Assembly (NCBI RefSeq): GCF_030013205.1
Contig: NZ_CP122648.1
Strand: one strand, 5' to 3'
Origin: Escherichia coli
GTDB lineage: Bacteria; Pseudomonadota; Gammaproteobacteria; Enterobacterales; Enterobacteriaceae
DNA: 64,000 nucleotides
The notes below the pieces were generated by a model. The model worked only from the letters and a program-made list of their open reading frames with translations, did not search any database and was not told where the DNA came from. Shown piece by piece: positions 6,322 through 46,563 of this stretch. Position 1 is the stretch's first letter, and the number at the start of each line of letters is the position of its first letter. The position numbers were made by a program, and so were the translations under genes.

Positions 6322-7706
6322 TACTGCTCTCCGAGATATTTGCTAATTAATTCGTCATCGGACAATTGCTGTTGAGGTTGGCTATCGCCATAACTTGAGG
6401 AAAGAAAACGTTTTGCCGCAGAGTTCAATGACTCACCCTTCTTAACATCCATCCCCATGATGTTTCGGTTGCGATCAGATTGTCCTGGGCTGCCATTTGC
6501 ACTCATCCACTCTGACTTAAACTCGTTGAACTTCGCGTTATTACTTTCCATTTTTGCCATACCCCTTAACCATCGAGCCATGACCATTGGATTATCCGTT
6601 TCGCTTGGAATGCCTTTCCTTGCAAACTCAATATCCTTATCTGATGCAGGGCCGGGAGGGAGAAGCTTGGTTGCCTGCGCATTGGCTAGTTGGTTGAATC
6701 TAATCCGCATATCTCGGAGGTAGTTATCTTGCCCCGTAAGCTTAGAGAACATATTTTCAGCGTTACCGAACAAACCAGGAGTTGGCTTCTCCTTCTCCAG
6801 CGTGTCAGCGAGCGTTGTCATTGAATCGGCAGCATTACGACTAGCTGCCGCATCACCTGCTGATTTTTCTATAGCCTTTTCCATGTTCACTGATAATTTT
6901 GGCGCTGCATTAATAAGTTTCTCGGCCTTTTTTTGTGCCTGTTGTACTTCAAAACCGAATTTCTGCTTATCAAGTGCCAGTCTTTCTGCTGCAAGTCCGT
7001 GTCCGGTCATTGCAGACTGATAGGAAAGGTTTTGCCCCCTAATAGCCCTCGCATTCGTCATGTCATTATTGCGAATGGTTTCGTTAATTCTTTGCTGTTC
7101 CTGCTGGCGACCAACCATCTTATCCTGAACAGCAAACGCCTTTTCTGGTCCAAGCGCACCGAGAGACATAGTAGTCAGCATGTGTGATAGCTGCTCTGGA
7201 TTCTGGATACCTGTCTGAATCATCCAGTCAGCATTAGCACCAACGCGATTTAACCTGTCCTTGTTGTCAGTAATGAATTTACTGTAGGCTTCCGGCCCCT
7301 GAGAAAGAGCGACGTTAGCTCTCATGGCTAAATCGCCCATATCGTTGCGTTGCTGATCATTAAGACCTGAAAAAGCCTGTTGTGCCTGTGCAACAAACGC
7401 TGGATTTTCCTGGGCAAACTTAAATAGTCCCGATGGATCACCAGAAGCCCATGCATCAGCGTGAACCTTATTGAACGCCCTAATCGCTTTCTGTTGCTGT
7501 TCCTGCTTATAAATATCAGCAACTCCAGCCAGACCACGTAACGCGGTCAGACTAACGTTATTTGCACCTGATCGAGACAGTTCATTGTTTTCGCGGATCA
7601 GACCAAGCGTTGCATTAATGTCGCTTGCCTTTGGCGCATTCTCGTTTTGCGCACCAATGCCAGCCAGAAAACCACCAGAATTAATACCCTGTTGCCACGT
7701 AGCCAT
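6321..7706 (-). CDS. DNA ejection/transfer protein (P22 gp20-like)
   Basis: 461 aa, the size of P22 gp20, in the gp7-gp20-gp16 order. Confidence 0.7.
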
Positions 7707-44169: not shown

Positions 44170-44356
44170 AGATAGTCGAATGGTGGGGAAAAGTCACTCG
44201 AATTACGTATGAGATGCCGAATGCCACACTTTGCGTCTTATTTCTCCGACGTAAAGTTGTTTACGCAGCAAACGCGGAGTATGTCATCTGGGTTAAGAAT
44301 TGAAATTGAGAGATGCCTGAATAGCAAAAAAGCGCCTTTAGGGCGCTTTTTTACAT

Positions 44357-44432
44357 TGGTGGGTCGTGCAGGATTCGAACCTGCGACCAATTGATTAAAA
44401 GTCAACTGCTCTACCAACTGAGCTAACGACCC
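44357..44432 (-). tRNA. tRNA-Lys(UUU)
   Basis: Reverse complement equals the recalled E. coli tRNA-Lys (GGGTCGTTAGCTCAGTTGGTAGAGCAGTTGACTTTTAATCAATTGGTCGCAGGTTCGAATCCTGCACGACCCACCA). Confidence 0.95.
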
Positions 44433-44465
44433 CTTGCGGGATTATGCTGCTTTAATCATTCAGGA

Positions 44466-44541
44466 TGGTGGGTCGTGCAGGATTCGAACCTGCGACCAAT
44501 TGATTAAAAGTCAACTGCTCTACCAACTGAGCTAACGACCC
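44466..44541 (-). tRNA. tRNA-Lys(UUU)
   Basis: Identical copy of the 76-nt tRNA-Lys sequence. Confidence 0.93.
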
Positions 44542-44590
44542 ATACGGGTGTTACCTGAAAGATTTCTACTCGAAACCAATCTTTAAGATT

Positions 44591-44660
44591 GGTGGGTCGT
44601 GCAGGATGACTCGCTTCGCTCGCCCTACGGGCCGTTGCTGGCGCAACGTTATCCTTCACG
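44591..44660 (-). repeat. Spacer unit: truncated tRNA-Lys 3' end (17 nt) fused to a ~55-bp conserved repeat
   Basis: TGGTGGGTCGTGCAGGA followed by TGACTCGCTTCGCTCGCCCTACGGGCCGTTGCTGGCGCAACGTTATCCTTCACG; second copy at 44877-44950. Confidence 0.5.
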
Positions 44661-44687
44661 CTTAACATCTGAGTTTGATGTTAAAAC

Positions 44688-44763
44688 TGGTGGGTCGTGC
44701 AGGATTCGAACCTGCGACCAATTGATTAAAAGTCAACTGCTCTACCAACTGAGCTAACGACCC
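44688..44763 (-). tRNA. tRNA-Lys(UUU)
   Basis: Identical copy of the 76-nt tRNA-Lys sequence. Confidence 0.93.
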
Positions 44764-44765
44764 GG

Positions 44766-44841
44766 TGGTGGGTGATGACGGGATCGAACCGCCGACCCCC
44801 TCCTTGTAAGGGAGGTGCTCTCCCAGCTGAGCTAATCACCC
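44766..44841 (-). tRNA. tRNA-Val(UAC)
   Basis: Reverse complement equals the recalled E. coli tRNA-Val1 (GGGTGATTAGCTCAGCTGGGAGAGCACCTCCCTTACAAGGAGGGGGTCGGCGGTTCGATCCCGTCATCACCCACCA); 2 nt from the adjacent tRNA-Lys. Confidence 0.93.
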
Positions 44842-44876
44842 GATACTACGCTGGATACTACAACTAACTAGGTTAG

Positions 44877-44950
44877 TGGTGGGTCGTGCAGGATGACTCG
44901 ACTTCGTCTCGCCCTTCGGGCCGTTGCTGACGCAACGTTATCCTTCACGT
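44877..44950 (-). repeat. Spacer unit: truncated tRNA-Lys 3' end fused to the conserved repeat (second copy)
   Basis: TGGTGGGTCGTGCAGGA followed by TGACTCGACTTCGTCTCGCCCTTCGGGCCGTTGCTGACGCAACGTTATCCTTCACG. Confidence 0.5.
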
Positions 44951-44976
44951 TTTACTACCGCTTCCACCTTAGCGAT

Positions 44977-45052
44977 TGGTGGGTCGTGCAGGATTCGAAC
45001 CTGCGACCAATTGATTAAAAGTCAACTGCTCTACCAACTGAGCTAACGACCC
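44977..45052 (-). tRNA. tRNA-Lys(UUU), first gene of the operon
   Basis: Identical 76-nt tRNA-Lys sequence. Confidence 0.93.
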
Positions 45053-45089
45053 ACTTTTTCGTTGCTTTCGGTTTGTTTGATATCCCGTG

Positions 45090-45125
45090 GCAACGGCGGC
45101 ATATATTACTGATTTCAGACTTGAG
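45090..45125 (-). promoter_or_regulatory. Putative tRNA operon promoter
   Basis: On the minus strand: TTGCGC, 16-bp spacer, TAATAT, then GC-rich discriminator, with an AT-rich upstream region. Confidence 0.4.
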
Positions 45126-45216: not shown

Positions 45217-46008
45217 TTACATCGCGTTCAGACGTTTTTGCGCCTGTTTAGCGCCATCAGTACCAGGGTATTTACTGATAACCTGCTGGTATACGGCTTT
45301 CGCTTTTGCGGTGTCACCTTTGTCCTGCATGATGACGCCGACTTTAAACATCGCATCTGCAGCCTTCGGTGACTTCGGATAGTTTTTCACTACCGAAGCA
45401 AAATAATACGCAGCGTCATCTTTTTTACCCTTGTTGTAGTTTAACTGACCCAGCCAATAATTGGCGTTTGGCAGGTAAGTTGAATCAGGGTAATTTTTGA
45501 TGAAATTCTGAAATGCCACCATTGCGTCATCCTGGCGGGATTTATCCTGCACCAGCGCAATAGCTGCATTGTAATCCGTGTTTGCATCACCGCTTTTCAC
45601 CGGCGCGCCAGCATTCGCAGTACCAGCATCAGCTGTCGGCGTCGTTGATGCCGCCGCACCGCTTTGATCGCCGCTGGTTGATTGCGCCGCTGCACCACCG
45701 CTGCTGAGGCTATCGATCTGCAACAGGATCTGCTTTTGCCGCTCCATGACCTGATTCAGTTGATACTGATTTTCCTGAATCTGACCACGCAGGGAATCAA
45801 TATCGGATTGATTATCAGAGAGTTGTTGCTGGAGTTGGGTTAAAAGCTGGCTGTGAGCATTTGAAATACGCTCAAGTTGAGTGACGCGGTCTTCGACCGA
45901 GCCTGAGCCGACACTACTGATTGGTGCCTGAGCAAAAGCGGCCCAGGGGGCCGCTATACCAACCAGTAACGACAGACTCAATAGTTGATGTCTGAAGTTA
46001 CTGCTCAT
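45217..46008 (-). CDS. cpoB: Cell division coordinator CpoB (YbgF), TPR protein
   Basis: 263 aa with signal peptide, coiled coil and TPR-like C-terminus; last gene of the tol-pal cluster. Confidence 0.93.
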   Translation of the reverse strand: MSSNFRHQLLSLSLLVGIAAPWAAFAQAPISSVGSGSVEDRVTQLERISNAHSQLLTQLQQQLSDNQSDIDSLRGQIQENQYQLNQVMERQKQILLQIDSLSSGGAAAQSTSGDQSGAAASTTPTADAGTANAGAPVKSGDANTDYNAAIALVQDKSRQDDAMVAFQNFIKNYPDSTYLPNANYWLGQLNYNKGKKDDAAYYFASVVKNYPKSPKAADAMFKVGVIMQDKGDTAKAKAVYQQVISKYPGTDGAKQAQKRLNAM

Positions 46009-46017
46009 GCAATTCTC

Positions 46018-46563
<546 letters not shown>

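Follow-up and report, generated by a model that had tools for sequence, protein, structure and literature searches.

Short-form RtT repeats ending in a copy of the tRNA-Lys 3' terminus in two spacers of an Escherichia coli lysT operon

Small RNAs derived from the spacers of tRNA operons are known from the leuZ 3' external spacer and the metZWV internal spacers. Like these, the elements described below would be by-products of tRNA operon processing that can persist, but the leuZ and metZWV RNAs act as base-pairing sponges and do not belong to a repeated family that carries a tRNA 3' end. A closer relative is found in the tyrT-tyrV operon of E. coli, the 178-bp repeats of which, termed RtT, yield an rtT RNA, as recorded in the annotation and in papers that cite the original description; the same citations ascribe to rtT an effect on the amino-acid starvation response (Bosl and Kersten, 1991). 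In tyrT, the annotated rttR RNA begins 7 nt downstream of tyrV, and its 3' boundary coincides precisely with the CCA of a partial tRNA-Tyr copy. For the lysT operon, RNase P is described as the main processing enzyme, and Northern blots with spacer probes revealed few intermediates in the wild type and no small spacer species, as described in the text (Agrawal et al., 2014). The words "repeat" and "rtT" are likewise absent from the main paper on lysT-operon processing.

We analysed a 64,000-nt stretch of E. coli DNA (the window), in which ARAGORN placed five tRNA genes between cpoB and nadA, all of them on the minus strand; positions 44300-45110 are 100% identical to E. coli strain ETEC4079. 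Read in the direction of transcription, the operon begins with the equivalent of lysT, encoding tRNA-Lys(UUU) (44977-45052; ARAGORN, 79.2 bits with the Rfam tRNA model, aligned with K-12 lysT), the 3' end of which is the sequence that is copied in the RtT elements. This gene is followed by a 27-nt spacer segment A (44950-44976), a 73-nt short-form RtT (copy 2, 44877-44949; Rfam RF00391 and predicted fold), a 35-nt spacer segment B (44842-44876), and the valT equivalent, encoding tRNA-Val(UAC) (44766-44841; ARAGORN and Rfam). A gap of only 2 nt separates tRNA-Val (44766) from the next gene, a tRNA-Lys(UUU) (44688-44763; ARAGORN) which, by alignment, represents lysW and lysY of K-12 merged via a 304-bp difference. 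Downstream of it lie a 26-nt segment A (44662-44687) with a predicted hairpin of its own, UUAACAUC-AAACUCA-GAUGUUAA, a 72-nt short-form RtT (copy 1, 44590-44661; Rfam RF00391, fold, and K-12 comparison), and a 48-nt segment B (44542-44589). The remainder of the operon comprises the lysZ equivalent (tRNA-Lys(UUU), 44466-44541), a 33-nt spacer without an RtT element as judged from the K-12 alignment (44433-44465), the lysQ equivalent as the last gene (tRNA-Lys(UUU), 44357-44432; both genes by ARAGORN and K-12 alignment), and a single copy of an intrinsic terminator segment (AUGUAAAAAAGCGCCCUAAAGGCGCUUUUUUGCUAU; 44321-44356; sequence and K-12 comparison). The two long spacers, which hold the RtT elements, measure 135 nt (from tRNA-Lys at 44977 to tRNA-Val at 44841) and 146 nt (from tRNA-Lys at 44688 to tRNA-Lys at 44541).

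Outside the tRNA genes, the plus-strand sequence TGGTGGGTCGTGCAGGAT, which is the reverse complement of the tRNA-Lys 3' end, is present at 44590-44607 and 44877-44894. On the minus strand these two sites are exact copies of AUCCUGCACGACCCACCA, the last 18 nt of tRNA-Lys, and the copied portion starts at nucleotide 59, in the T loop. An earlier sequence-only reading had described truncated tRNA-Lys ends joined to a common repeat in these two spacers, and this observation was confirmed by the sequence itself, by the RtT E-values given below and by conservation. The reading had taken the copy to be 17 nt long; the copy is real, but it spans 18 nt and starts one base earlier at each site. Each copy lies 80-82 nt from the tRNA-Lys gene upstream of it, in the same orientation and within the operon, and is preceded, in the RNA sense, by a conserved structured segment of ~55 nt. 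The repeat shared by the two spacers covers 48 nt at 92% identity (44619-44666 vs. 44908-44955), and the 12-14-nt stretch that adjoins the partial tRNA end differs between the copies by an indel. The GCCC-TAC-GGGC stem-loop that had been assigned to both units is present as such in copy 1 (plus strand, 44622-44632), and copy 2 carries the variant GCCC-TTC-GGGC (44911-44921).

Both elements have the same order of parts: a 10-nt 5' arm (CGUGAAGGAU), the hairpins H2 (CGUUGC-N4-GCAACG), H3 (GCCC-GNA-GGGC) and H4 (a variable GNA hairpin), the sequence CGAGUC, and the 18-nt tRNA-Lys end. In copy 2 (minus strand), these are the 5' arm CGUGAAGGAU at 44940-44949, H2 (CGUUGC-GUCA-GCAACG) at 44922-44937, H3 (GCCC-GAA-GGGC) at 44911-44921, H4 (GAC-GAA-GUC) at 44900-44908 and the tRNA-Lys end at 44877-44894; in copy 1 (minus strand), the 5' arm is at 44651-44660, H2 at 44633-44648, H3 (GCCC-GUA-GGGC) at 44622-44632, H4 (GC-GAA-GC) at 44613-44619 and the partial tRNA-Lys 3' end at 44590-44607. 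Nine of the ten positions of the 5' arm pair with the opening ten nucleotides of the copied tRNA end, so that the element is closed by this helix and the tail ACCCACCA left single-stranded. The closing stem, H2 and H3 are all present in the predicted folds, for which z-scores ranged from -2.0 to -3.8; for copy 2, the fold has -28.5 kcal/mol and z = -3.8. Neither window copy contains an ATG and, therefore, neither harbors a tpr-like reading frame.

Next, we compared the two spacers with Rfam. In their genomic context, copy 2 and copy 1 matched the RtT family (RF00391) with 60.6 and 54.4 bits (E-values 4e-11 and 1e-9), above the gathering score of 45, in alignments that placed the first ~55 model positions on the real tRNA-Lys upstream and bridged the distance with a 44-nt insert. 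When the spacers were searched alone, the scores were just below that threshold (copy 2: 42.3 bits, model positions 51-130; copy 1: 41.0 bits, model positions 46-130; E-values about 1e-7). Since the spacer-only match covers the 3' two-thirds of the model, the elements are clear RtT relatives without the 5' third, to which we refer as the short form. The part that is missing in comparison to a full-length RtT, model positions 1-45/50, comprises the closing-stem 5' strand in its modelled position, the T-arm-like hairpin and the first small hairpin; a 5' arm is present and directly abuts H2. It should be mentioned that covariance matches to RtT in tRNA arrays are reported with a length of ~167 nt against a true element of 72-73 nt, coordinates that are overstated because the model borrows the neighboring tRNA. 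Matches to other Rfam families, including Y-RNA-like ones, were all below threshold and were produced by the tRNA genes themselves. The spacer repeats are not chance matches.

The window copies were also compared with the RtT of tyrT. Shared features are the core CGUUGC-N4-GCAACG followed by GRCCCGNAGGGYGAG, a variable hairpin and CGAGUM; a 3' end in which the final 18-19 nt of the neighboring tRNA are repeated, together with a 5' arm complementary to that end; and a position downstream of a tRNA inside an operon, in the same orientation. The differences are that the partner is tRNA-Tyr in tyrT and tRNA-Lys in the window, and that the window copies are of the short form and without the tpr-like frame. 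The units belong to a family that is already catalogued and known and is ordinary in E. coli, and the finding amounts to a rediscovery of a repeat family that is present in K-12.

A different origin could be imagined, in which the units are decayed tRNA-Lys pseudogenes, of which unequal crossing-over or a deletion spared only the 3' end, and the 55 nt are a duplicated remainder. The identity of the 3' 18 nt to tRNA-Lys would fit such a history, as would the similarity of the 5' arm to a fusion of the terminal part of the acceptor 5' strand with the 5' strand of the T stem (CGU-GAAGG vs. CGU-GCAGG). However, the core has no similarity to tRNA-Lys and is shared, at about 70-78% identity, with elements associated with Tyr, Arg, Pro and Gln tRNAs; the units are kept between genera rather than decaying; and neither ARAGORN nor the Rfam tRNA model (RF00005), even at E <= 10, found a tRNA in either long spacer. 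By both methods, these spacers are consequently devoid of complete, diverged tRNA genes, the finding that would have overturned the sequence-only reading, and we regard descent from broken tRNA genes as exceedingly improbable. The best explanation of the units as a whole, to which we assign a probability of roughly 0.85, is that they are short-form RtT elements, i.e., old inherited spacer modules that would undergo tRNA-type 3' processing.

We then asked how the window differs from the lysT operon of K-12, in which seven tRNA genes are accompanied by five RtT matches and every tRNA-Lys is followed by one of these; the corresponding numbers in the window are five and two. K-12 carries ten RtT copies in total, namely five in the lysT operon, four in tyrT and one after lysV, in agreement with the 10 places at which the core search detects the element in K-12-like genomes. 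The fifth RtT of the K-12 lysT operon is of full length and is flanked by two copies of one 36-nt terminator segment, and the same terminator-flanked arrangement of a full-length RtT is seen after lysV of K-12, in the valU operon. By inspection, the K-12 lysY unit is identical to window copy 1 together with its upstream segment A (44590-44687), and the K-12 lysT unit matches window copy 2 apart from the loop of H2. Aligning the window with K-12 left three clean gaps of 304, 99 and 156 bp, all of them bounded by direct repeats. The 304-bp gap is one Lys-RtT-Val unit and has its end points in identical Val-Lys repeats; the 99-bp gap corresponds to the fourth K-12 RtT, with its end point inside an 18-nt repeat; and the 156-bp gap comprises one terminator copy and the fifth RtT, with its end point inside a 54-nt repeat. 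The 33-nt spacer at 44433-44465 corresponds, with a single mismatch, to the stretch downstream of the partial tRNA end in the fourth K-12 RtT.

The count of five tRNA genes in the window against seven in K-12, which had been put forward earlier, was upheld by ARAGORN and by the K-12 operon. The further proposal that the RtT units are the cause of this reduced number did not survive the comparison: K-12 has five elements beside all seven tRNA genes, and it is the missing 304-bp unit that by itself accounts for five genes rather than seven. RtT units are no replacement of tRNA genes. As to direction, the differences in length could reflect loss in the window or gain in K-12; for the full-length copy, its absence here is most simply a loss, because many members of other genera have a full copy downstream of tRNA-Lys together with a doubled terminator. 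The length differences from K-12 all have their end points at direct repeats that the element creates as a by-product (18 nt, or 54 nt with the terminator) or at the identical Val-Lys units, and recombination between such repeats is the likely source of the many lysT operon variants among E. coli strains, the present one with five tRNAs and two RtT elements included. The suggestion that the units are recombination footprints was accordingly right in one respect, in that strain differences start and stop at the repeats, and wrong in another, as no recent event left these units behind: they belong to an old family and are conserved from E. coli to Citrobacter and Pluralibacter. RtT repeats thus mark the end points of length differences among natural variants of the lysT operon, and the natural deletion variants found here would be convenient material for tests of RtT function.

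In 5,426 complete E. coli genomes, the RtT core was found at 1-13 places per genome, apart from 136 genomes with none. Of the 5,426 genomes, 3,074 carry a full-length copy of the Lys type, which PGAP labels "RtT sRNA". Spacer copies of this kind are annotated by pipelines in other genomes as well; one annotation of Klebsiella pneumoniae, for example, lists "RtT RNA" features of 166-170 nt that lie few locus tags apart.

To look beyond E. coli, we scanned species-representative genomes with the core motif and obtained at least 120 stretches, about half of which are chance matches in high-GC genomes. Among the matches listed, at least 91 are distinct real elements, and the taxonomic census given here is a sample. 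The short form is found after lysT in Citrobacter, Pluralibacter and Pseudescherichia. At least eight tRNAs serve as partners (Lys-UUU, Tyr-GUA, Arg-ACG, Pro-CGG, Pro-UGG, Arg-CCG, Gln-CUG and Gln-UUG), with Pro-UGG in Gilliamella and Pseudescherichia, Arg-CCG in Marinobacterium, and Gln-CUG and Gln-UUG in uncultured gammaproteobacteria. A non-tRNA partner, 5S rRNA, is used in Superficieibacter, Siccibacter, Pantoea and Budvicia, with 13-14 nt copied; these 5S-associated copies received no RtT call from Rfam at threshold.

Nearly all tRNA-associated elements terminate in a sequence identical to the 3' end of a tRNA at the same locus, over 18-19 nt from A58/A59 of the T loop; a few tRNA-associated copies are degenerate at this tRNA-derived end. 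The best match of the 5' arm was always the antisense of the element's own partner. In the full form, the parts follow the order antisense of the last ~25 nt of the partner, loop, sense 5' strand of the T stem plus UUCGA, core, and sense 3' end, and the 5S version follows the same logic. The position of the core is fixed: with tRNA partners it follows A58 of the T loop, and with 5S it is placed between GGGA and ACUGCC. The sequence GGTTCGAATCC is common to the five partner tRNAs that were compared, which places the junction at the point from which these tRNAs begin to differ. Arrays of tRNA-Arg genes contain the short form in their spacers too, with a closing helix that reaches to the discriminator base and leaves ACCA. 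We also noted a conserved core, ACG-GCCCGNAGGGC-GAG. Tandem repeats of the same hairpin module without a tRNA-derived end are present in Brenneria, and Arsukibacterium carries copies of a related unit.

These architectures raise the possibility, which we put forward tentatively and hold to be somewhat doubtful, that RtT is one face of a wider modular family residing on the 3' flanks of gammaproteobacterial stable-RNA genes and built by inverted duplication of the partner's 3' end. If this were true, there would have to be either a general mechanism by which the element is copied or retargeted to new stable RNAs, or a general function that requires mimicry of the neighboring 3' terminus; to our knowledge, neither such a retargeting mechanism nor such a terminus-mimicry function has been described. 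Ends matched to the partner on eight tRNA species and on 5S rRNA are the aspect that possibly goes beyond prior descriptions.

A direct repeat that runs from the T loop to the CCA end is the classic shape of an attachment site in tRNA genes. We therefore considered whether the units are scars or miniatures of integrative elements, in which a T-loop recombinase inserted DNA that brought a substitute tRNA 3' end, the displaced 3' end stayed behind as an 18-nt repeat, and the rest decayed to ~55-120 bp. RtT units and attachment sites of the T-loop class have in common the direct repeat of the tRNA 3' end from the T loop (18 nt in the window) and presence or absence between strains: the partial copy runs from the T loop through CCA, over 18-19 nt, in every case, at lysQ and lysV of K-12 the repeat continues through the terminator to 54 nt, and strain differences have clean borders at the repeats. 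Against this, the repeats are separated by no more than 55-120 bp, which contain a conserved structured core and neither an integrase or other recombinase nor cargo or phage DNA. The element is essentially absent from phages: 50,697 phage records yielded three short partial matches (29-34% of the query) and one match in a misplaced Salmonella genome contig, where it is annotated as RtT RNA. Moreover, the same core adjoins varied tRNAs and also 5S rRNA across several orders, its internal hairpins covary, and tandem arrays of three or four elements occur. Cores cluster by partner across genera, which argues for long residence and not for repeated insertion. An integrative origin is for these reasons very unlikely in our view, and the short-form RtT remains the preferred description of the units. 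An analogy to the primer-binding sites of retroelements, prompted by the 18 nt that reach to position 58, was also considered and dropped, as the orientation of the copy does not fit tRNA-primed synthesis.

Conservation of pairing bears on the age of these RtT elements and on the level at which they are constrained. H4 is present in 61 variants, nearly all of which retain a stem of 2-5 bp, and the summed stem length of 194 compares with 34 ± 7 for shuffled sequences; H2 and H3, being part of the search pattern, were invariant and carry no information on covariation. Pairs of the closing stem are compensatory between the Lys and Arg types, and also within the Arg type, where the arm has a G-to-A change that compensates for C-to-U in the tRNA end. 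A published covariation analysis supported a tandem G-A motif in RtT, and this motif matches the CGAG...CGAG flanks around H1 and H4. When cores were compared across genomes, the nearest neighbor of 67 of 86 cores had the same partner tRNA. No recent spread between partners within a genome was seen, the similarity of cores with different partners being 0.70 in the same genome and 0.72 in different genomes. Clustering by partner without likeness within the genome suggests that the lineages are old and resident and were not recently mobile.

It is conceivable that these repeats are DNA elements of a selfish or structural kind, much like REP or miniature inverted repeats, with hairpins that act in single-stranded DNA and without any role as RNA, and that recombination lets them persist and multiply in stable-RNA operons. 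GNA triloops are very stable in single-stranded DNA too, and GCGAAGC is an exceptionally stable DNA mini-hairpin; each element has three GNA triloops, GCGAAGC among them, and the z-scores of the DNA folds were -2.9 and -3.9. The highly variable copy number in E. coli (1-13 places per genome and none in 136), the tandem arrays, the Brenneria repeats devoid of a tRNA-derived end and the related unit of Arsukibacterium point in the same direction. REP and miniature inverted-repeat elements are dispersed at many unrelated intergenic sites in either orientation; the RtT copies that were examined closely all adjoin a tRNA or 5S gene in the sense orientation of that stable-RNA gene. In addition, folding is more favorable for the transcribed strand than for the opposite one, an element with a different partner has a 5' arm that is again complementary to the 3' end of that partner, recent transfer from one partner type to another in the same genome is not apparent, and an RNA product is documented for tyrT in the annotation and in citations. 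The counts of G-U against A-C pairs (H4: 4 vs. 1; closing stem: 31 vs. 17) do not separate constraint on RNA from constraint on DNA. A DNA-level role is conceivable; on balance, a purely DNA-level repeat is an unlikely account of the family, and we favor short-form RtT elements that are transcribed.

Acceptor/T-arm minihelices are the minimal substrates of RNase P and of the CCA-adding enzyme. Like such a minihelix, the short-form element would consist of a helix of acceptor- and T-stem sequences followed by a single-stranded CCA end, with the differences that a core of ~45 nt stands in place of the T loop and that the helix of the Lys copies is 4 bp short, leaving an 8-nt tail. By analogy, the most likely role of the RtT units is that of spacer modules, transcribed along with the operon, that direct 3' processing of the tRNA type through their tRNA-like terminus. 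The unit would be transcribed together with the tRNAs; its tRNA-like terminus (the closing stem and ...CCA) would be treated by the 3'-end maturation machinery like that of a tRNA; and the spacer would be cut out as a discrete module, which would shorten the trailer of the upstream tRNA, as is documented for the rtT RNA in tyrT. Of the three interpretations that had been offered for the units, i.e., processing signals, recombination footprints, or the cause of the lower tRNA gene number, that of processing signals is plausible and, by the same analogy, the best supported. The copies in tRNA-Arg spacers, the helix of which extends to the discriminator base and leaves ACCA, resemble a tRNA minihelix.

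Matches to the RtT covariance model (Rfam RF00391) in the window spanned 44590-44756 and 44877-45045, which amounts to 167-169 nt apiece, and they ran over the upstream tRNA. RtT matches in tRNA arrays extend this far because the T arm of the tRNA takes the place of the missing 5' hairpin. The 166-170-nt "RtT RNA" features annotated in tRNA arrays, for example in K. pneumoniae, probably overstate the element likewise. We also observed a separate 8-bp hairpin, UUAACAUC-AAACUCA-GAUGUUAA, at 44662-44687 (minus strand), in the part of the spacer that separates tRNA-Lys from RtT copy 1; the stem of this hairpin is retained, with a different loop, in the K-12 unit that follows lysW.

Tandem arrays of at least three full-length RtT units were seen in Pantoea (L051), Klebsiella (L043), Superficieibacter (L024) and the K-12 tyrT locus (L005). 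Since every unit in these arrays carries its own terminator or downstream-spacer copy, the arrays show that the amplified unit is "tRNA 3' end + flank + RtT". Comparison of the K-12 valU operon after lysV (L126, 630-830) with the K-12 lysT operon region after lysQ (L002, 2154-2354) revealed almost identical blocks of terminator, RtT, partial end and terminator, suggesting that the two tRNA-Lys loci of K-12 have undergone gene conversion with each other. The stretch that separates the operon terminator from the nadA promoter region (window positions 44250-44310) stood out for its divergence, with 16 mismatches to K-12 (L002, 2355-2415) in 61 nt, as opposed to about 1% elsewhere. The K-12 version of this stretch includes CATCCTGCAC, a match to the RtT/tRNA-Lys junction that may be a decayed additional copy.

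In Superficieibacter, Siccibacter, Pantoea and Budvicia, relatives of the RtT core, the conserved hairpin module, directly follow 5S rRNA genes (retrieved loci L025, 80-225; L114, L116 and L117; L050; and L067). These relatives copy the final 13-14 nt of the 5S gene (AACUGCCAGGCAU), their 5' arm is antisense to the 5S 3' region, and Rfam made no RtT call on them at the gathering score. The hairpin-plus-GGCCCGNAGGGCGA module of the RtT core was found, in addition, in units that have no tRNA-derived end, in which an AAAAnnn...nnnUUUU hairpin precedes the module. Such units are repeated in tandem, with a period of about 77 nt, in Brenneria (L103, about 6940-7100), lie within near-identical flanks on four contigs in Arsukibacterium (L121-L124), and occur at the further loci L101, L107 and L102, the last with one unit and a 5S gene directly downstream. 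They may represent a family that is sister to the RtT core.

Elsewhere in the window, Rfam strongly matched 45979-46117 (minus strand), upstream of cpoB, to the CpoB/ybgF RNA thermometer at 142 bits, which is the expected result for E. coli.
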